Sequence record: OP172792
Source: Escherichia phage ECO340P2
Length of the DNA: 64,000 bases
Strand: one strand, 5' to 3'
Below, in pieces: positions 2 through 10,015 of the stretch; positions within the stretch are counted from its first letter, which is position 1, and each line of letters begins with the position of its first letter. The translations under genes and the position numbers were made by a program. The notes beneath the pieces were generated by a model. The model worked only from the letters and a program-made list of their open reading frames with translations. It was not told the origin of the DNA and ran no database searches.

Positions 2-547
2 GGTCGTTCAGCAGAACTGGATATTATTCATCGTAAAGTTAGCTATATCAACGATTATGGTTTCTTGGATAAAGCTAGTCGTAAGAAACTTATTGATGGG
101 GATACATTCTACTGCAACAAAGAATTCTGGGGTGATAAGAAGCTTGTGTTCATTGATGATGTAAATATCACTGGAACTCATGAAGACAAACTGATTGAGA
201 TCCTTGATGAAAATCAAGTTAAAAATGATGTTTACTTCTTGTATTTTGCAAAATATGAAGGTAATCAAGCAGATACCGAAGCTAAACTGAATTTTAACTA
301 TATTAATACACCAGAAGCATTTGTTAAAATGATTAATGAAGAACGTGATGCACAGTGTCTTGTTCGTCCTATTAAGTATCTTATGGGTCAAAATCACGAA
401 GACTTCAAAATCATTCTTAGCCAATTGCCACACTACTATGTAGAGCAGCTTTTCTTCGGATGTTTGGGAGAAGGTTACAACCGAATTGCAAAGTATGCTG
501 AAAACTTTGAGTTCTTGGATCGTTACACAAAACAACATATTCTGTGA
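2..547 (+). CDS. 5'-truncated ORF (continues upstream of window); phosphoribosyltransferase-like protein (tentative)
   Basis: Frame is open from window start; motif LVFIDDVNITGTHE resembles the PRPP-binding loop of type I PRTases (hydrophobic run, DD, then TG-T). Motif-level only. Confidence 0.35.
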   Translation, partial: GRSAELDIIHRKVSYINDYGFLDKASRKKLIDGDTFYCNKEFWGDKKLVFIDDVNITGTHEDKLIEILDENQVKNDVYFLYFAKYEGNQADTEAKLNFNYINTPEAFVKMINEERDAQCLVRPIKYLMGQNHEDFKIILSQLPHYYVEQLFFGCLGEGYNRIAKYAENFEFLDRYTKQHIL

Positions 548-560
548 TAAGGATCTAAAA

Positions 561-1046
561 ATGCTTAAAATGAAAACAGGTAATCTTATTGATGCCGCTA
601 AAGCAGGGGAAGTAACGGTTATTGCTCATTGTTGTAATTGTATGTGTAACATGGGGGCAGGTATTGCCCCACAAATAAAATATGCGTTTCCATATGCATA
701 CGAAGCAGATTTAGCTACAGGAGCAGGAAACCAGAAAAAGCTTGGTTCTTTTAGTTTAGGAGAACCAGAAGATTATCCTAATCCTATGGTATACAACCTT
801 TATGGACAATATCGTTATGGATATAATAGTAAAGGTCGTCAATTAGATTATGATGCACTGTATGATGCTCTTGCAGCTATGGCAATGGACTTACACAATT
901 ACGATAAAGGAGATCAACCAGCACATAAGATTGGTCTACCTATGATAGGTGCAGGTCATGCTGGAGGTAATTGGGCTATCATTGAAGTCATGATCAAAGA
1001 AACTTTAGTAAAAGCTGGTCACGATGTGACTATTTATAAACTTTAA
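561..1046 (+). CDS. Macro-domain protein, TARG1/OARD1/DarG-like (ADP-ribose removing)
   Basis: Motif VIAHCCNCMCNMGAGIA matches the TARG1-type macro signature (AHC..C.MGAGIA). Start moved to ATG 561 (AAGGA 7 nt upstream) instead of track start 486, which overlaps the previous gene. Confidence 0.6.
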   Translation: MLKMKTGNLIDAAKAGEVTVIAHCCNCMCNMGAGIAPQIKYAFPYAYEADLATGAGNQKKLGSFSLGEPEDYPNPMVYNLYGQYRYGYNSKGRQLDYDALYDALAAMAMDLHNYDKGDQPAHKIGLPMIGAGHAGGNWAIIEVMIKETLVKAGHDVTIYKL

Positions 1047-1604: not shown

Positions 1605-2579
1605 ATGCAACTTGGTTTCCCAATTATTGATGTAGTTGTTTTAGTTGGTATTTTAGCATTGTCTATTGGTATCGATTTCTTTGGTCATAAAGAAAATAAA
1701 GAAATTGGAATCAAATCTGCTTTGCTTTGGTCTGTTTTTTGGATTGCTTTAGCTTTAGGGTATTACGCATTCATTTGGGTAGAACATGGTAAAGAATTTG
1801 CCGCGCTTTTCCTAAGTGGTTATGTGTTGGAAAAGAGTCTTTCTGTAGATAACCTAATGGTGTTCATGGCAATTTTTGCAAGCTTTGGAATTAAAAGCAC
1901 ACATCTCCAACATAAGATCTTACTTTGGGGGATTGCAGGAGCCATTGTCTTCCGAGGTATTTTTGTTGCAGCAGGCACCGCTTTGTTTAACCTTCATTGG
2001 TCGGTCCAAGTGTTGTTTGGTCTGATTGTAGCTTGGTCTGCCGTTGCTATTATCAAAGGGGGTGACGAAGAAGAGGATATTGATTACTCTAAACATTGGG
2101 CTGTTCGTTTAGTAGGTAAAGTTCTGCCTATGCACAATGCACTGGATGGTGAAAAGTTCATTACTATTAAGAATAGTATTAAATATGCAACCCCTGCTCT
2201 TCTTTGTGTGTTTGTTATTGAGCTTACAGATATTGTCTTCTCTTTTGATTCAGTTCCGGCTGTGATTGGTGTGACACAAGAACCTCTGCTAGTTTATTCT
2301 GCAATGCTGATGGCTGTTCTTGGCCTACGTGCACTTTTCTTTGTGTTAAGTGTAGCTGTGAAATATTTGGTTCACTTAGAGAAAGCTGTTGCTGTGGTTC
2401 TGGTGTTTGTTGGTGCTAAACTTATGTATCACCCGTTCGGTGAAACACTTCATGCCAAGTGGTCATTCCTCCCGCATGATATCTCTCCTAACGTAAGTTT
2501 AATGATTGTTCTAGGCACATTAGCTCTTGGTGTTATTGCAAGCTTTATCTTTCCTGAAAAAGAAGAAGCCACTGTTTAA
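1605..2579 (+). CDS. terC: TerC-family integral membrane protein
   Basis: Multi-pass hydrophobic protein carrying the TerC hallmark LEKSLSVDNLMVF; strong RBS GAGAGGAG upstream; followed by a terminator. Confidence 0.85.
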   Translation: MQLGFPIIDVVVLVGILALSIGIDFFGHKENKEIGIKSALLWSVFWIALALGYYAFIWVEHGKEFAALFLSGYVLEKSLSVDNLMVFMAIFASFGIKSTHLQHKILLWGIAGAIVFRGIFVAAGTALFNLHWSVQVLFGLIVAWSAVAIIKGGDEEEDIDYSKHWAVRLVGKVLPMHNALDGEKFITIKNSIKYATPALLCVFVIELTDIVFSFDSVPAVIGVTQEPLLVYSAMLMAVLGLRALFFVLSVAVKYLVHLEKAVAVVLVFVGAKLMYHPFGETLHAKWSFLPHDISPNVSLMIVLGTLALGVIASFIFPEKEEATV

Positions 2580-2585
2580 TAGATG

Positions 2586-2610
2586 AGCCTCCTTCGGGAG
2601 GCTATTTTAT
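2586..2610 (+). terminator. Rho-independent terminator after terC
   Basis: AGCCTCC-TTCG-GGAGGCT followed by ATTTTAT. Confidence 0.75.
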
Positions 2611-2621
2611 AGGAGAGACTT

Positions 2622-2972
2622 ATGAGTAATTTTGATGAAATTCAAGAACTTGTTTGGGATTTATGTGGTGATGTGGATTACGTTTCGGACTATCTTTCAA
2701 AAGTTTACCCTGGGGTAAGCGTTATGATTGTGACAAAAGATCCAATTAACTTACCTCCTAATGTGGTAGCTTGTTGTGGAAGTGGTTCAGGAGAAGTGGA
2801 GCCTGTATCTCGTTGGGAATTAACTAAAGCCGTTTCAAAACGAAACGGTGAAGTTTTGAATATTGATATCGAGCAAATATGGACTTCTCCAGCAGCCAAA
2901 TGGAATGATCCAAATGGTTGGGATTTGTTCTTTTGGGATAATGAAACTGATGATGAGGTATTTTTAAAATGA
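2622..2972 (+). CDS. Hypothetical protein
   Basis: ORF track; AGGAGAG RBS; no recognisable motif. Confidence 0.5.
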   Translation: MSNFDEIQELVWDLCGDVDYVSDYLSKVYPGVSVMIVTKDPINLPPNVVACCGSGSGEVEPVSRWELTKAVSKRNGEVLNIDIEQIWTSPAAKWNDPNGWDLFFWDNETDDEVFLK

Positions 2973-3214
2973 AATACTTGTTGGTTGTGTTTGAAAATAT
3001 TTGTTTTGCAATAGGTTTGTTTGTTGTAATTTTTGTATTGACAAGCGTAATCAACGGCAGTAAAGTGAGTTTATACCGAGATGGAGAGCAGCTTTATTGC
3101 TTCTCTGGAGATTTCAAACACAGATGTATTAATAGTCAAAACGAGGAAAGCAAATATGAAAAAACTAGCCCTGATTTTAATTGGTTGTATCTTTTTAACA
3201 GCTTGCGAGGATGA
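2969..3214 (+). CDS. Possible small single-TM protein (uncertain; overlaps next gene)
   Basis: ATGA start/stop overlap with preceding ORF; N-terminal hydrophobic helix LLVVFENICFAIGLFVVIFVL; overlaps the lipoprotein start by about 59 nt, so may be spurious. Confidence 0.25.
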   Translation: MKYLLVVFENICFAIGLFVVIFVLTSVINGSKVSLYRDGEQLYCFSGDFKHRCINSQNEESKYEKTSPDFNWLYLFNSLRG

Positions 3215-3593
3215 AACAAATCCTGCACAATACCAACAACCTCCTCAACAATACGCTCAACAAGGATCTGACGGAGATACAACTATTATCAACAATGGTG
3301 GCGGCTCTAGTAGTAGCGGTGTTGGGGAGTTTGCTACAGGTATGTTGTTAGGGCATATGATGAGCGGTGGTAGTAATCGTGGTGGCGGAGATTATAACGA
3401 TAACAGAACGATTATTAATAAACATTATAACACACCTAAACCAAAGACTAATTTTTATGGTAAACCTAAACAAGAGACAAAAACTTATGAAAAGCCGAGA
3501 CAAACTTTTAAAACAAATAGTAGCTATACAACTCGTAAATCTTACAGTAGCCCTTTAAGTAAAAAGAGTTCATCTCGTAGCAAGCGACGTTAA
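3156..3593 (+). CDS. Lipoprotein (signal peptide with lipobox LTAC), Q/G/S-rich, basic C-terminus
   Basis: MKKLALILIGCIFLTAC is a classic lipoprotein signal with lipobox Cys; GAGG RBS; start ATG 3156 preferred over track start 3081. Confidence 0.6.
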   Translation: MKKLALILIGCIFLTACEDETNPAQYQQPPQQYAQQGSDGDTTIINNGGGSSSSGVGEFATGMLLGHMMSGGSNRGGGDYNDNRTIINKHYNTPKPKTNFYGKPKQETKTYEKPRQTFKTNSSYTTRKSYSSPLSKKSSSRSKRR

Positions 3594-3607
3594 TAAGGAG
3601 AAAAACA

Positions 3608-4201
3608 ATGACAATTTCTATTCGTACTTCCATCGTAGGTGTTAAAAGGTTGCCTAATGCTTTGCAAATCACACGTGCTTTGAGGGATACGTTCTCTGCT
3701 GTGGATGAGCATAAAATGCTTGATAATCTCTCAAATTGGCCCTATTTTCATTATTTTAAAAATGAAGATGACGAGTTTATAGATGCTGTTTCTTATGGTT
3801 ATGATTTCGGTAAGGAGGTTTCTCCTGAAGAATTTGTAGCTACGGTATTCCCAAATGGTTTTCCTACTCGCAGCAAACGTAAAAAAGGACCAAAAAACAA
3901 GAAACGTGCTATTAATAAAGCTACCATTTTCTTTACTGATGGGACACAGTATACGATTAAAGATTTTGAAGAAGTATCTTATACAGCAGGTGGAAATCTT
4001 TCTTTCTACACCATCAAAAAACAAAACGCTACGTTCAGCCATGTTTCTAACATGATTGAAATGTTAGTAGAAGATATTGAAAGCGTGGCTGTGTTAGGTA
4101 TGCATAAAAGCTTTTTAATTACAAATATTTCAGATTTCAGTGCACGTTTATCTAGCCCTGATTTTGAAGCCACGACCACGCATTTCACTTTTAAGGTGTA
4201 A
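3608..4201 (+). CDS. Hypothetical protein
   Basis: ORF track; AAGGAG RBS; no recognisable motif. Confidence 0.5.
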   Translation: MTISIRTSIVGVKRLPNALQITRALRDTFSAVDEHKMLDNLSNWPYFHYFKNEDDEFIDAVSYGYDFGKEVSPEEFVATVFPNGFPTRSKRKKGPKNKKRAINKATIFFTDGTQYTIKDFEEVSYTAGGNLSFYTIKKQNATFSHVSNMIEMLVEDIESVAVLGMHKSFLITNISDFSARLSSPDFEATTTHFTFKV

Positions 4202-4204
4202 GTT

Positions 4205-4795
4205 ATGTATACCGAGAGAGACTTGCAACTCTTGTGGTGGGAAGTGATGCAGGAAATAAAAGAAGATTTTCCTGTTTACTACAACATGTTACGTGAAGCA
4301 GGATATAAAGCTTGCGTTAGAAACAAAGTGAATAACTCTTTTGGTTGGTGCAACTACCGAGATAAAATTGTTGTTGTAAATTGGCACTTGCATAAGAACT
4401 CTACAAGAGATATGATCGTGGATACAATGAAGCATGAAATTGCTCATGCTATTGATGGTTGTATGGGTAAGTTTAGTAGGCACGGTGCTCATTGGCAAAA
4501 ACTGGCAGCAGAATTAGGGGCTAATCCTAAAGCCACTTCCAAAGAGCCGTTGAACCACGAATATAAATATGTTCTTGTTCTGGTAGATAGGTTTGCGACA
4601 AGGTGTGTTAGAGGTTATAATCGTAAACCTAATCGCATGTACCCAGGTAAGCAACCTAATATGTGGTTGAAATCAGATAAAGAAGGGACCGAAGGAAAAT
4701 TATGGTTGTATAAATGGGACGATTGGGTTAAAGTAGCTAAAGAGTACGGTGTTTCACCATATATAAGAGATGCAGAAGAGGAGAATGAAGAATGA
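4205..4795 (+). CDS. HExxH zinc-metallopeptidase-like protein (SprT/Wss1-like)
   Basis: Motif MKHEIAHAIDGCMGKFSRHGAHW gives HExxH plus a downstream His; family assignment tentative. Confidence 0.5.
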   Translation: MYTERDLQLLWWEVMQEIKEDFPVYYNMLREAGYKACVRNKVNNSFGWCNYRDKIVVVNWHLHKNSTRDMIVDTMKHEIAHAIDGCMGKFSRHGAHWQKLAAELGANPKATSKEPLNHEYKYVLVLVDRFATRCVRGYNRKPNRMYPGKQPNMWLKSDKEGTEGKLWLYKWDDWVKVAKEYGVSPYIRDAEEENEE

Positions 4796-5904
4796 CAAGT
4801 CCATTTTTAAAAGCAGCTACTGGTGGTCAGAAGAAGTCTGAAATGAGTGTATTCGCTGCAACAACAGATGCAAGTAAATCTGTATTCGCGCCAAGCGTGT
4901 TAGATGCCAGTCCTGTTTATGCACCAGCCGCACCGCAAGAAGTCCCAGTTTTGCCTTCTATGACCCGACAAGAGATCGAAGAGATTGGGGCAGAGGCAGG
5001 AACAACCTTGCGTTCCTTGAATGCCGAGGTATTAAAACATCAACGTAGTAATCAAGGCGATCAGATGAGTGAACGACTCACAGCTTTGATTAAACAGGCA
5101 AAACAACTTGATCCAAACTCTATTAAACAAAGCAAGGGTATTACTAAACTCATTAAAAAGGTCATGGGTATGAAAGAAGACCTGTTCGGGGAGTTTGATA
5201 ATGTTAATAACCGTATTGAAGAGTTAGTAAAGAACCTTCAAATGGATATTCGCAAAGAAGAAGATTCCTTAGTATATCTTGAAAAACTACATCAAGCTAT
5301 TGGACAATATGCTGCAAGTTTGAACCGAGATATGCAGCTTCTAACAGCAACCTATGAAAAAGAAGAGCAAGCTTTGGCTGCTCTTCCAGAAGATGCAGTA
5401 GAACAGCGACAAGTGATCCGAGATACTTTGGATCTTCTGGAGATTCGTATTGCGGATTTAAAAGCATTGCGCCTACTGTGTGTCCAAATGGGACCACGTG
5501 TACAAGGTATGCAAAAAGTTTCTGCAAGCTTAATGCGATCTGCGCGTAACATAGTAAATAATGTTATCCCTGCTTACTCTGCTAACTTCTCAATGTATAT
5601 TGAGAGCTTACGTCAAATGAAAGCCGCAGAAACACAGAATAACGTTCTTGATGAATTTAACCTGGCAATTAAATTAGGTAGTGATTTGGCTACACAAAAT
5701 CAGATTGAAGCCGCAGCATTGGCTAACCGTCAAGTGTTAGATATTGATACTCTGCGACACGATCAGGAAAACTTAGTTAAAATGCTGGAAGAAACAAATC
5801 GCATCAATACAGAAGCCCGTGCTGCTCGTGTTGATTATATTAATGAAGTTCAATCTCTGGAAGACGGGATGGTAGCTGCTGTAAAACGAGGACTTGGTAA
5901 ATGA
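4792..5904 (+). CDS. TelA-like (toxic anion resistance family) coiled-coil protein, tentative
   Basis: About 370 aa, disordered N-terminus then long coiled-coil-prone helices; size, composition and position between terC and terD fit TelA/KlaA. No diagnostic motif verified. Confidence 0.4.
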   Translation: MTSPFLKAATGGQKKSEMSVFAATTDASKSVFAPSVLDASPVYAPAAPQEVPVLPSMTRQEIEEIGAEAGTTLRSLNAEVLKHQRSNQGDQMSERLTALIKQAKQLDPNSIKQSKGITKLIKKVMGMKEDLFGEFDNVNNRIEELVKNLQMDIRKEEDSLVYLEKLHQAIGQYAASLNRDMQLLTATYEKEEQALAALPEDAVEQRQVIRDTLDLLEIRIADLKALRLLCVQMGPRVQGMQKVSASLMRSARNIVNNVIPAYSANFSMYIESLRQMKAAETQNNVLDEFNLAIKLGSDLATQNQIEAAALANRQVLDIDTLRHDQENLVKMLEETNRINTEARAARVDYINEVQSLEDGMVAAVKRGLGK

Positions 5905-6095
5905 GAATCCGTGTTTATATGATTGATGATAGCTTTGGTGTCCGTTATGATGACGAAAAACGATTCGCGCCGATTAGCGGCATACATCCCCTAAGTGTTT
6001 TGGCAGCTTGTCGTGATAAATATCTCTATGAAGCTTGTAATCATTTTGGTTTTGAGCTTCTTTCAGATGTAGAGTTTAATGAGGAGGAAGGATGA
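5901..6095 (+). CDS. Small acidic hypothetical protein
   Basis: ORF track; ATGA overlap with upstream gene; acidic C-terminus. Confidence 0.4.
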   Translation: MRIRVYMIDDSFGVRYDDEKRFAPISGIHPLSVLAACRDKYLYEACNHFGFELLSDVEFNEEEG

Positions 6096-6265
6096 AAATA
6101 TTACGCGTGAATATTGAAACCGCTTGGTGCGGATGTAATGAGGTTGTGGATATTGAAATTGAAGATGATATGTCTAAAGAGGATATAGAAGATCTTGCAC
6201 ACGAAACCTTTCAGGACTATTGTAGCTATGGGTTCCATATTTTAGAGGAGGAAGAAGATGTATAA
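6092..6265 (+). CDS. Small acidic hypothetical protein (57 aa, not in ORF track)
   Basis: ATG 6092 preceded by GAGGAGGAAGG; read by hand to stop at 6263-6265; very acidic. Confidence 0.3.
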   Translation: MKILRVNIETAWCGCNEVVDIEIEDDMSKEDIEDLAHETFQDYCSYGFHILEEEEDV

Positions 6266-6656
6266 TCCAACAGGTATTCTTTTAAAACTCACAGTAACAG
6301 ATCCTACTCTTTTCACCAAGTTAGTCAGTGGTGAAGTCTATGAAGTAATGAAAGATGACGACGGTTGGTGTTATCTTTGTGGCTACTACCTCTGTGATGC
6401 AGAAGAGTTAGAATCCATTACAACTAAAGGTTTTTATGAAGAACCAGGCTTCCGTGTGGAAACTACACAGAAACCTGATACCATTACGTTGACTCGACAG
6501 GAACTGATCACAATCATTGAAGATGCTTTTATTGATGGTTGGAATACACAAGATAATGATTGGGGTGGACCTGAAGCTTTTCTAGAACATCATAAAGCTT
6601 ACGGAGAATTTTGTGAAACCACTGTAGCTCTTGATAATCTGAAGGAGGGTTTGTAA
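6258..6656 (+). CDS. Acidic hypothetical protein
   Basis: ORF track; GAGGAGGAAGAAG RBS; strongly D/E-rich. Confidence 0.5.
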   Translation: MYNPTGILLKLTVTDPTLFTKLVSGEVYEVMKDDDGWCYLCGYYLCDAEELESITTKGFYEEPGFRVETTQKPDTITLTRQELITIIEDAFIDGWNTQDNDWGGPEAFLEHHKAYGEFCETTVALDNLKEGL

Positions 6657-7219
6657 TGGGTTGTTTTAGCTTTTTGTGTAAGGAATCGGGCAAAGCTGCC
6701 CTTTCTACTTCTTTCGACGGATCGCCTTGCTATCTCTTTCTTTTGAAAGATGGTGTTGTTATTGAAGAGATGTATGGCAACTACGATAGTTATGGTTGTG
6801 TTTTCTCTGGAAAGGAGGACGAAAATGGCGTTCGTGAACGGTTTGATTGGGTTATGGATTGGAGTAAGGTTTGTGATTTGATGCATTCCTCAAATCCAAG
6901 GGACGGTATCGCTATGGTGCTGGAAGAGTACTTTACAGGTGAAATCCCTACAGAACAATCTGACAGAGATCCTAACCAAGGTTGGGGTGATGGTGAAGAA
7001 GATCCAGATTGTTTTTTCAGCACAGAAAAGAATAAGTTTAAACGTGTTGACAACCCTTATCACAAAGTGCATAATACTCTCATTGAAACAGAAGATGACA
7101 AGATGGAAATTGAAGAAGATGATCCTCTTGTAACACTTCCTATAAGCGAGTTACAAAAGATTACTAAAGAAGCTTACGATTTGGGCTTCAAAATTGGTAG
7201 AGGAGGTATGCGTGTTTAG
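6656..7219 (+). CDS. Hypothetical protein with acidic C-terminal half
   Basis: ORF track; GGAGGG RBS; several Cys pairs; no recognisable family. Confidence 0.5.
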   Translation: MGCFSFLCKESGKAALSTSFDGSPCYLFLLKDGVVIEEMYGNYDSYGCVFSGKEDENGVRERFDWVMDWSKVCDLMHSSNPRDGIAMVLEEYFTGEIPTEQSDRDPNQGWGDGEEDPDCFFSTEKNKFKRVDNPYHKVHNTLIETEDDKMEIEEDDPLVTLPISELQKITKEAYDLGFKIGRGGMRV

Positions 7220-7484
7220 ATTCAATATTCAAGAAGAAAAGTATAAGGATTTACCTGTTCCTTTCGAAGATCTTGACGTAGGGGATACATTCATGTATTA
7301 TGCTGCCTATGAAGATGCAGGGTTGGATACTTACATTAATTTGGTGTTCATTAAAAGTTCTCCAAACAGCGCAATCTGCATCAGTGGATCGCAACGAGGT
7401 TATACACATTGTATCCCGCCAGATACAAATATGGTGGAAGTAGATTTAGAAGTTACCAATATCACACTTAAGAAGGAGAAATAA
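7212..7484 (+). CDS. Small protein, paralog A of a duplicated pair (partner of the TerD-headed vWA gene)
   Basis: GTG 7212 preceded by GGAGG; motifs DLDVGDTFMYYAAYEDAGLD and EVDLEVTNITLKK are shared with ORF 8506..8775. Confidence 0.5.
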   Translation: MFRFNIQEEKYKDLPVPFEDLDVGDTFMYYAAYEDAGLDTYINLVFIKSSPNSAICISGSQRGYTHCIPPDTNMVEVDLEVTNITLKKEK

Positions 7485-7485
7485 T

Positions 7486-8280
7486 ATGTCCGAGAAAATC
7501 AGCCTGAAAAAACGTCAAGAAAACCTTGCTTTCTCTCTGAAAAAGAATAAGAACCTGAATGAAGGTAAGATTGTTCTTCGTGTAGCATGTGCTCTAGATA
7601 TTTCTGGTAGTATGCATGGTCTATATGCTCGTGGAGTAGTGAGTGATTTTGTAGGTAAACTGCTCCCTTTTGGTATGCTGTTCGACGATAATGAACAAAT
7701 TGATATGTGGGCCTTCAATACAAGTTCTCAAGAGCTTACTCCAGCAACAGCAGACGTTTACGATGATTATGTTGGTAAATGTATGCGTAATGTTCGTATC
7801 GGAGGTGGAACAAATTACGCCCCTGTAATGGCAGATATCTACGATGAGTATTTTGGCACTGTTACCAAATATATTACCACTAAACAAGTGGTACAAGAGG
7901 AGGCTCCAAAGAAAGGCTTCTTTAATCGTCTGCTTGGTAAAACTGAAACAGTATCTGTAGAGCGTGAAAAGGTTGTAGCTGTATCTGAACCAGGTGCTGA
8001 CGTTACCCCTGGTGTTGTATTCTTCCAGACGGATGGTGAGAATGGTGATCCTAGTGCTGTTCGTCGTCTTATTGAAGAGAATAAGAATAAACCTATTTAT
8101 TGGTTCATGGTTGGCGTCGGTAATGAGAAGTTTGGCTTCCTGAAAGAACTGGCAAATGCTTATGATAATGTTGGTTTTATTGGCATTAAAGATTTAGACT
8201 TGACAGATTCAGAGCTTTATGACAAACTCTTATCTGAAGAGTTCGGAGAGTGGGTTGTTAAAGTAGGTGCTAAAAAATGA
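7486..8280 (+). CDS. vWA (MIDAS) protein with TerD-like N-terminal head; TerF/TerY-like
   Basis: N-terminus MSEKISLKK...FSLKK mimics the TerD start; LRVACALDISGSM is a vWA MIDAS DxSxS motif. Confidence 0.65.
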   Translation: MSEKISLKKRQENLAFSLKKNKNLNEGKIVLRVACALDISGSMHGLYARGVVSDFVGKLLPFGMLFDDNEQIDMWAFNTSSQELTPATADVYDDYVGKCMRNVRIGGGTNYAPVMADIYDEYFGTVTKYITTKQVVQEEAPKKGFFNRLLGKTETVSVEREKVVAVSEPGADVTPGVVFFQTDGENGDPSAVRRLIEENKNKPIYWFMVGVGNEKFGFLKELANAYDNVGFIGIKDLDLTDSELYDKLLSEEFGEWVVKVGAKK

Positions 8281-8525
8281 TCGACGAGCTTGCCTCTCAA
8301 GTCGTAGAAAATTATTGGCGCGAGAGAGAAGCTTTCATTATGCGCAGTCTCAAAGAATATTTCATTGGGACTGTGCGGATGGAAGATATTGTAAGTAGAG
8401 TAGAGATTCATGTATGGCCTGATTATGAAGAATGGGTTGACAAAGAAAATGAAAATGCTATAATTCTTCGTATATACAAACCGGAGATAACATTAGGAGG
8501 AAGAAGTGTTAAACTTCGAAATTGA
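8277..8525 (+). CDS. Hypothetical protein
   Basis: ORF track; ATGA overlap with upstream gene. Confidence 0.4.
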   Translation: MIDELASQVVENYWREREAFIMRSLKEYFIGTVRMEDIVSRVEIHVWPDYEEWVDKENENAIILRIYKPEITLGGRSVKLRN

Positions 8526-8775
8526 TGAGCAAAAAATAAATAAACGATGCCTTACCATTAAAGATTTGGATGTAGGAGATACTTTCGTCTATGAAAATGC
8601 ATTTGACGAAAATGGTTTAGACCTTAGTGAAGTCATTGTTTATTTAAAAGTAGATGATGGGGAAAATGATTATTCTGCTGTAGAATTAAACCATCATGCA
8701 CAATTAGTAGCAATCCAAAACACATCTAAGCTTTTGGAAGTAGAATTGACTGTAACTGGTATTACACTTAAATAA
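8506..8775 (+). CDS. Small protein, paralog B of the duplicated pair (partner of terD)
   Basis: GTG 8506 preceded by AGGAGG; shares DLDVGDTF..Y and L.VELTVTGITLK motifs with ORF 7212..7484. Confidence 0.5.
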   Translation: MLNFEIDEQKINKRCLTIKDLDVGDTFVYENAFDENGLDLSEVIVYLKVDDGENDYSAVELNHHAQLVAIQNTSKLLEVELTVTGITLK

Positions 8776-8790
8776 TAGAGGAGACAAAAG

Positions 8791-9393
8791 ATGACTGATA
8801 AAATTTCCCTGAAAAAAGGCTCTAGCGAAAAAATTTCCCTGAAGAAAGTTGCTCCGGCTCTGAAAGAACTGCGCCTGGAATTCTCTTGGAAATCTGATTC
8901 TAAACTGGATCTGGATGTAAGTGCACTGGTTTGTCGTCATAATGCCGCTGGCAATCCTGAAATGCTGTCTGCACGTCATCTGGTTTGCTATGCTAACAAG
9001 TTTGATCCTGAACGTTCTACCTTTGCTGGTGACGATGTTCGTGATGGGACTGGCAGCATGGAGCAGATTGATATTACTCTGGCTAAAATCTCTCCCGATG
9101 CACAAGAGATTGCCTTTGTTCTGACCATTGATGATGATACAGGTCTGAAACGTTTTGGTCATGCTTCTGAAGGTATGCTTAAAATCTTCGACTCCGAGTG
9201 TAATGTGGAAATTCTGGATTTTGACTTCCTGGCTCCTGAAGTAGCTGGCAACACAATCTGCCACGTGGCTTCCTTGGTTCGTGAAGATGGTGAATGGAAG
9301 CTGAAAGCATATGGTGTAGGTAAAGCTGGTCTGGATATTTGTGATGTGGTGATGGCCTTCGGTGGTAAAAAAGAATGGTATGAATGTCCATAA
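8791..9393 (+). CDS. terD: TerD-family protein
   Basis: Collinear with remembered enterobacterial TerD: ISLKKGSSEKISLKK, LDLDVSALVC, GDDVRDGTGS..IDITL, FVLTIDD and GEWKLKAYGVGKAG all match. Confidence 0.9.
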   Translation: MTDKISLKKGSSEKISLKKVAPALKELRLEFSWKSDSKLDLDVSALVCRHNAAGNPEMLSARHLVCYANKFDPERSTFAGDDVRDGTGSMEQIDITLAKISPDAQEIAFVLTIDDDTGLKRFGHASEGMLKIFDSECNVEILDFDFLAPEVAGNTICHVASLVREDGEWKLKAYGVGKAGLDICDVVMAFGGKKEWYECP

Positions 9394-9412
9394 TAATTAA
9401 CAAATGATTTTG

Positions 9413-9434
9413 AGGGGGGAGAAATCCCCCTCTT
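9413..9434 (+). terminator. GC-rich hairpin after terD (possible terminator, short U-tract)
   Basis: GAGGGGG-AGAAAT-CCCCCTC followed by TT only. Confidence 0.4.
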
Positions 9435-9461
9435 GCAATAAAGCCTCTATCGTGTTATACT
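9433..9461 (+). promoter_or_regulatory. Sigma70-type promoter (TTGCAA-N17-TATACT) upstream of the cell-wall hydrolase gene
   Basis: -35 TTGCAA 9433-9438, 17-nt spacer, -10 TATACT 9456-9461. Confidence 0.55.
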
Positions 9462-9493
9462 AGAAGTTCGTTAACTTAAAAAGGAGGCAAAAT

Positions 9494-10015
9494 TTGCTGA
9501 TAAAAAACTTTGTAACAGTTGCGTTACTATCCTTAACTGCTTTTACATTTACACCTGTTGTGGCGAAAGCCGAAGCTGCAAACGTAAAAACCGCTAAAGT
9601 AGTTCACAAATGTACAAAGCAATATAATGATAAAATTCTATTAGCTTGTGCAATTTACGCAGAAGGTCGCGGTCTGGGTAAAAAAGGAATGAATGCCGTT
9701 GGGAATGTGGTAATCAATAGAAGAAATGATGCCTACTTTCCTAACACAGTCAGAGGAGTCTTGTTCCAGAAAGGACAATTTTCATATGCGAAAACTTTTA
9801 ACGTAACAGAGAAAGATAAGTGGCAGGAAGCAAAAGCAATAGCGGAGCGTTTACTTTATTTAGAGAAACATTTTCCTGAATTGCGATCTGTTTTAGATGT
9901 TACTAAAGGTGCTCTATACTTCAAGAAACGGAATATAAGGACACACTGGGAACGCGATATGCGTCTTGTTTATCGAGATAAAGTGCATGGTTTCTATCTA
10001 CCAAAGGAGAGTTAA
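9494..10015 (+). CDS. Secreted cell-wall hydrolase (SleB/CwlJ-type) with N-terminal signal peptide
   Basis: TTG start after AAAGGAGG; signal-like N-terminus; core CAIYAEGRGLGKKGMNAVGNVVINRRNDAYFPNTVRGVLFQKGQFS matches the SleB-type fold; own promoter upstream. Confidence 0.75.
   Translation: MLIKNFVTVALLSLTAFTFTPVVAKAEAANVKTAKVVHKCTKQYNDKILLACAIYAEGRGLGKKGMNAVGNVVINRRNDAYFPNTVRGVLFQKGQFSYAKTFNVTEKDKWQEAKAIAERLLYLEKHFPELRSVLDVTKGALYFKKRNIRTHWERDMRLVYRDKVHGFYLPKES

Follow-up and report, generated by a model that had tools for sequence, protein, structure and literature searches.

An acidic small-protein family accompanies the vWA/TerD pair of the abbreviated Ter module in phAPEC8/phi92-type phages

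What do two small, mutually similar genes contribute to a phage module in which each of them immediately precedes a gene with a TerD-like beginning? In Escherichia phage ECO340P2 (sequence record OP172792), of which we analysed a stretch of 64,000 nucleotides (nt; hereafter the window), one small GTG-initiated gene lies in front of a gene encoding a von Willebrand factor A (vWA) protein related to TerF, and a second lies in front of terD itself. An initial annotation had read this arrangement as a duplicated two-gene cassette, with the small proteins acting as a dedicated partner subunit or chaperone for TerD-fold proteins. We favour, with moderate confidence, a different answer, namely that the small proteins form an accessory part, restricted to one lineage, of the phage's abbreviated Ter module, associated with its vWA/TerD pair and present once or twice per genome. 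The genes concerned are the following.

7212-7484, plus strand: small paralog A, 90 residues, GTG start, isoelectric point (pI) 4.4, PHROG 11278, predicted SH3-like small beta-barrel
7486-8280, plus strand: vWA-TerF-like protein, 264 residues, PF10138 (E=1.3e-37)
8277-8525, plus strand: open reading frame (ORF) of 82 residues between the vWA gene and copy B, PHROG 22387, restricted to the two-copy lineage
8506-8775, plus strand: small paralog B, 89 residues, GTG start, pI 4.3, PHROG 11278, predicted SH3-like small beta-barrel
8791-9393, plus strand: TerD, 200 residues, PF02342 (E=9e-28, profile positions 3-177 of 187)

The claim that the two small proteins are paralogs was borne out by BLASTP, which aligned them end to end with significant similarity (35% identity, E=7e-16), and by the PHROG 11278 profile (92 positions), which covered residues 1-89/90 of both A (E=4.8e-44) and B (E=8.2e-44). 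Each GTG start has a GGAGG Shine-Dalgarno sequence on its 5' side and is backed by M1 and F4, two residues that are invariant across the family alignment. A hidden Markov model (HMM) of the family recovered exactly these two copies in the 64-kb window and no third. Every member of the family is acidic (pI 4.3-5.3), and searches of Pfam, NCBIfam and PADLOC returned no match for the small proteins. The direct placement 5' of the two genes that start with M(S/T)(E/D)KISLKK holds as well: a single nucleotide separates copy A from the vWA-TerF-like gene, whose Shine-Dalgarno sequence is situated within the 3' end of copy A, and 15 nt separate copy B from terD.

The notion of a duplicated cassette did not withstand comparison of the downstream genes. 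TerD aligns from residue 5 onwards with solved TerD structures (PDB 2KXT, E=3e-15; 3IBZ, E~1e-15), and its N-terminal hairpin (ISLKKG..ISLKK) is canonical, matching the N-terminal strands of both structures. The vWA protein scores 130 bits against PF10138 (cut-off 29.4 bits) and, when aligned with TerF, displays an intact metal-ion-dependent adhesion site (MIDAS) motif, comprising D-I-S-G-S, the Thr in GGTNY and the Asp in TDGE. It begins with the hairpin KISLKK...FSLKK (KISLKKRQE..FSLKK, encoded at ~7486-7545), and the TerD domain PF02342 found no match in the protein encoded at 7486-8280. In pairwise comparison, the vWA protein and TerD resemble each other over their first ~55 residues only (E=0.001). 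In plasmid TerF the same hairpin (ARISLEKK...VSLTK) sits between a complete TerD domain and the MIDAS strand DASGSM, and vWA-TerF-like proteins that stand alone, from a Caballeronia plasmid as well as from Caulobacter, Brevundimonas, Rhizobium, Pseudomonas, Bacillus and Acinetobacter phages, also contain it. As the hairpin is common across the vWA-TerF-like family, the product of the vWA gene is, judged by its sequence, an ordinary member of that family with a TerD-like hairpin of ~20 residues, and not a TerD-fold protein. The label 'TerD-headed' implies a TerD domain, but the hairpin motif is all that is shared. The 82-residue ORF in front of copy B likewise has no clear equivalent in front of copy A, its similarity to the 187-residue ORF located there amounting to E=0.015 over 31 residues. 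Because vWA and TerD are not paralogs but different folds, and because the 82-residue ORF is no clear relative of the 187-residue ORF, we conclude that the duplication comprised the small gene and nothing else.

To delineate the family, profile searches were required, as word-indexed protein searches with A or B alone retrieved close relatives only. When 1.84 billion representative proteins were scanned with a HMMER profile, ~17 full-length clusters of 87-93 residues emerged, which makes the family a very narrow one. The remaining matches were fragments, or sets of 3-22 weak stretches on individual giant proteins; the latter fell on unrelated, mutually inconsistent Ig-like repeat families (such as He_PIG, DUF11 and HYR) and were rejected as motif or composition artefacts. 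By tblastn the small family occurs in 126 phage records, all of the phAPEC8/phi92 (Stephanstirmvirinae) type, a few of them labelled with other hosts. Two records (MG065639.1 and MG065689.1, 'Campylobacter phage A150/A110a') carry a small gene and a vWA gene of the phi92 type, with the identity seen in E. coli Justusliebigviruses, and their host labels may be wrong. The small gene resides within the vWA-TerD block in 9/9 loci, where the gaps to its neighbours are short or the genes overlap. Each locus has at least one copy immediately next to vWA, but a copy before TerD is not found in every genome. Wherever the context was readable in the scan of 1.84 billion representatives, the family was never found outside the vWA-TerD block. 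Gene order fell into three arrangements.

Phapecoctaviruses (window, ESCO13, phiWec186): A-vWA-(ORF of 80-82 residues)-B-TerD, two copies
phi92 and Klebsiella 05F01: small gene-vWA-TerD, one copy
Four distant uncultured relatives: vWA-small gene-TerD-hydrolase, one copy

Directly after TerD, where other genomes have the hydrolase, phi92 carries an extra ORF of 200 residues without a Pfam match (gp171, locus 6788-7390).

These arrangements narrow the idea of a dedicated partner or chaperone considerably. One-to-one pairing of a small gene with the gene downstream is not conserved, since the only copy in phi92 and Klebsiella 05F01 lies upstream of vWA and that of the distant relatives lies between vWA and TerD. 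Nor is there general co-occurrence: vWA-TerF-like proteins are found by tblastn in 212 phage records from many groups, compared to 126 for the small family, and the family HMM detected no member in six other Ter loci from phages and plasmids. Ter modules without the small family include those of Caulobacter, Brevundimonas, Rhizobium, Pseudomonas and Acinetobacter phages and those of plasmids. Small ORFs near the Ter genes of other phages (CcrColossus, 87 residues; Brevundimonas, 91 residues; phiPsa300, 84 residues; Acinetobacter, 57 residues) were rejected as family members, as they gave no HMM match and look helical or hydrophobic. A family that is missing from other Ter modules cannot be a general TerD chaperone, and one of the two supposed clients, the vWA protein, is not TerD-fold. 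What remains of the idea is a functional tie to the vWA/TerD pair, which is plausible in view of the placement within the block in all loci examined, the tight spacing and the promoter in front of copy B and TerD described below.

The single copies also speak to the history of the duplication. At the distant loci, the small proteins share 22-34% identity with their counterparts, compared to 41-60% for vWA and TerD, and the invariant residues of the family are retained even at this distance. By tblastn the distant single copies match B, not A. In a distance (neighbour-joining) tree, which is poorly resolved, the A and B clades group together and the single mid-position copies fall mostly outside. 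Gene order and this tree suggest that the mid-position small gene is ancestral and was duplicated within the Stephanstirmvirinae. An ancestor would have carried one small copy between vWA and TerD, and the second copy, upstream of vWA, would have arisen by duplication within the subfamily; both copies would then have been retained in Phapecoctaviruses, and the upstream copy only in phi92-like phages and Klebsiella 05F01.

AlphaFold modelling of copy B (18 sequences) gave a predicted local distance difference test (pLDDT) of 82-85 in 5/5 models, with the same order of strands and helix and a predicted template modelling score (pTM) of 0.77, while for copy A (nine sequences) a pLDDT of 82 was reached in only 1/5 models. 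The predicted topology, five strands and one short helix, resembles that of SH3-like small beta-barrels such as the C-terminal domain of ribosomal protein L2, FeoA, the C-terminal domain of DtxR, KOW and Tudor, and both A and B are tentatively predicted to be acidic SH3-like small barrels. A fold search of BFVD provided no informative relatives, the matches being uncharacterised small phage proteins only. A barrel of this type could in principle bind a ligand, either a metal ion or a nucleotide-like Ter metabolite, and so serve as a sensor or sponge rather than as a protein partner, and the presence of a phosphoribosyltransferase (PRTase) and a possible Macro domain in the module would be in keeping with such a role. 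The small proteins, however, have no sequence match in Pfam, NCBIfam or PADLOC, and the family alignment contains no conserved Cys/His metal-binding site. We consider a sensor or sponge decidedly improbable.

Consensus matching, on which all our promoter calls are based, revealed an element in front of each small gene.

7047-7075, plus strand: sigma-70-like promoter, TTGACA-17-CATAAT (11/12), in the upstream 187-residue ORF, 137 nt before the start of copy A
8437-8464, plus strand: perfect sigma-70 consensus promoter, TTGACA-16-TATAAT with TG extension, in the 82-residue ORF, 42 nt upstream of copy B

The element at 7047-7075 is also present in ESCO13 and phi92. No perfect sigma-70 match other than that at 8437-8464 occurs in the 64-kb window (0.06 expected), and this one is kept in ESCO13 as well as in phiWec186, which is more distant. 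In three of the distant loci, 10/12 elements are located ~58 nt before the single small copy. Promoter-like elements at these positions suggest that the small gene and the gene downstream of it are transcribed together. A hairpin after TerD (9412-9432) was rejected as a terminator, as it was no better than shuffled sequence (z=-1.4) and lacked a T-tail.

Alternatively, the small ORFs might function chiefly in cis: as translated leaders they would couple ribosomes to vWA and TerD, and their protein products would be unimportant. The GTG starts, the strong Shine-Dalgarno sites, the 1-nt and 15-nt gaps and the downstream Shine-Dalgarno sequence within the end of copy A are all features of the kind expected from a leader. 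Yet conservation is seen at the level of the protein, with invariant residues kept down to 22-34% identity, the fold of copy B is predicted confidently and reproducibly, and TerD of phi92 and Klebsiella 05F01 has no such leader in front of it. A role purely in cis strikes us as barely credible.

If the small proteins are instead an accessory component of the module, as we favour, each would be made together with its neighbour by virtue of a sigma-70-type promoter and tight translational spacing, and would then bind vWA and/or TerD in the role of an adaptor or assembly factor. Docking would most likely take place at the lysine-rich N-terminal hairpin that vWA and TerD share, the MIDAS site of vWA being the alternative. 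Binding would tune the assembly of the membrane-proximal Ter complex, which in the literature is proposed to serve phages against stress or superinfecting phages; for abbreviated phage Ter operons, a role against superinfecting phages has been put forward (Iyer et al. 2021, PMC7824862; bioRxiv 10.1101/2021.03.02.433402).

Unexpectedly, the hairpins themselves co-vary. In eight lineages, the head of the vWA protein is closer to the TerD head of the same genome than to the heads of other genomes (7486-7560 and 8791-8860 in the window), as illustrated by the vWA/TerD pairs SEKISLKK/TDKISLKK in the window, DVINLAK/DTINLTK in CcrColossus, AVIDLEK/SVIDLSK in Brevundimonas and LQFDLVK/LQFDLCK in the Acinetobacter phage. 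The same-genome scores of these eight lineages summed to 213, compared to a permutation mean of 142 (standard deviation 15), and the observed sum was reached by 1/20,000 permutations, figures that ignore the composition and the relatedness of the lineages. Recent gene conversion between the two heads of the window is an unlikely source of the resemblance, because the shared residues are specified by different codons (e.g. AGC versus TCC for Ser). Co-variation within genomes fits the head as an interaction element, and in the clade with the small gene the 23-residue heads have net charges of +4 to +7. One could imagine that the hSLxK hairpin of TerD and of vWA-TerF-like proteins is a genome-specific element of mutual recognition, which if true would explain the co-variation of heads genome by genome, and that in the phAPEC8/phi92 group an acidic SH3-like barrel evolved, and was later duplicated, that docks on the lysine-rich head and controls the timing of TerD/vWA assembly during infection. 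We offer this as a speculation that we ourselves find unlikely.

The main rival to an accessory role is that the small proteins are ordinary fast-evolving phage ORFs, functionally unrelated to TerD and vWA, whose position reflects inherited collinearity and local duplication. Several observations count against the reading that we favour, and the first three of them also lend weight to this rival. First, all carrier genomes are related and collinear, forming one group with the order TelA ... vWA ... TerD followed by a SleB-like hydrolase, so that conserved adjacency is not fully independent evidence, and the Ter modules of other phages and plasmids work without the small family. Second, copy A is a local divergence hotspot: between the window and ESCO13 (7212-7484 versus 7610-7888) it is 89% identical at the nucleotide level, compared to 96-99% for its neighbours, and the two versions differ by a 6-nt indel and by an alteration (D to A) of the conserved GDTF motif. 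As copy A diverges fast between close relatives and vWA is nearly invariant, there is no sign of a tightly co-evolving interface. Third, many uncharacterised small proteins of unrelated phages in BFVD have the same fold, which therefore says little about function. Finally, the correlation of acidic protein and basic head comes from one clade, and the heads of Caballeronia are basic without a small gene; the tree under the proposed duplication history, as noted, is poorly resolved. What inherited order does not readily account for is that adjacency to vWA was kept after the gene had changed side and copy number, that the family persists with its invariant residues across divergence to 22-34% identity, and that it was never met outside the block wherever the context could be read among the 1.84 billion representatives. 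Simple collinearity hence appears rather unlikely to us, and both the sensor or sponge and the role in cis are less likely still.

The setting of the locus is that of a known module. Over 6600-9500, the window shares 97% identity with E. coli myophages of the phAPEC8 type (genus Phapecoctavirus, subfamily Stephanstirmvirinae), and by this similarity it belongs to a Phapecoctavirus with the abbreviated phage Ter module. Abbreviated Ter operons comprising TelA, a TerF-type vWA protein, TerC and TerD have been reported from tailed phages, jumbo phages among them (Iyer et al. 2021, PMC7824862), and one has also been described in Klebsiella phage phiKp34 (bioRxiv 10.1101/2021.03.02.433402). The other genes of interest around the vWA/TerD pair are these.

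65-547, plus strand: ComF-like PRTase, PF15610 (E=2e-24)
486-1046, plus strand: ORF with a weak Macro-domain match, PF01661 (E=5e-4, below the Pfam cut-off)
1605-2579, plus strand: TerC/Alx-family membrane protein, PF03741 (E=3e-40), TIGR03718 (E=1e-94)
4205-4795, plus strand: SprT-like protein
4792-5904, plus strand: TelA-like protein, PF05816 (E=7e-33), PHROG 5890
9494-10015, plus strand: SleB-type cell-wall hydrolase, downstream of TerD

TelA, the vWA-TerF-like protein, TerC and TerD are all encoded on the plus strand within 1605-9393 and are co-located with the PRTase, in agreement with the composition of an abbreviated Ter module. The PRTase and the weak Macro ORF (65-1046) lie just 5' of TerC, which suggests that part of the Ter nucleotide-metabolite arm is present in the phage as well. 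No riboswitch or other Rfam family was found in the Ter module. Elsewhere in the window, five tRNA genes are clustered on the minus strand near its end (63110-63673), and the GC skew turns from positive to negative near 24 kb, coinciding with a change of coding strand.

Ter systems occur widely among pathogens, plasmids and phages. The small protein, clade-specific and always in the company of the vWA/TerD pair, provides, along with the co-variation of the heads, material for probing how TerD and TerF-type vWA proteins assemble, although the advance is a modest one: an uncharacterised accessory gene is added to a module already described in phages.

Akin to TerF of the plasmid terZABCDEF operon, which combines a TerD domain with PF10138, the phage vWA protein possesses the ISLxK...VSLxK hairpin in front of the MIDAS strand, and it aligns to TerF residues ~177-413. 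Unlike plasmid TerF, it lacks the N-terminal TerD domain, TerD being encoded by a separate gene in the phage, and the plasmid ter operon has no counterpart of the small barrel gene. The other abbreviated Ter blocks (CcrColossus, the Brevundimonas, Rhizobium, Pseudomonas and Acinetobacter phages, and the Caballeronia plasmid) contain the same four core families in one co-oriented block. These modules are ordered TelA-vWA-TerC-TerD and have no PHROG 11278 gene, whereas in the window TerC lies ~5 kb upstream, and in the phages with the small family one or two small genes are positioned beside vWA and TerD.

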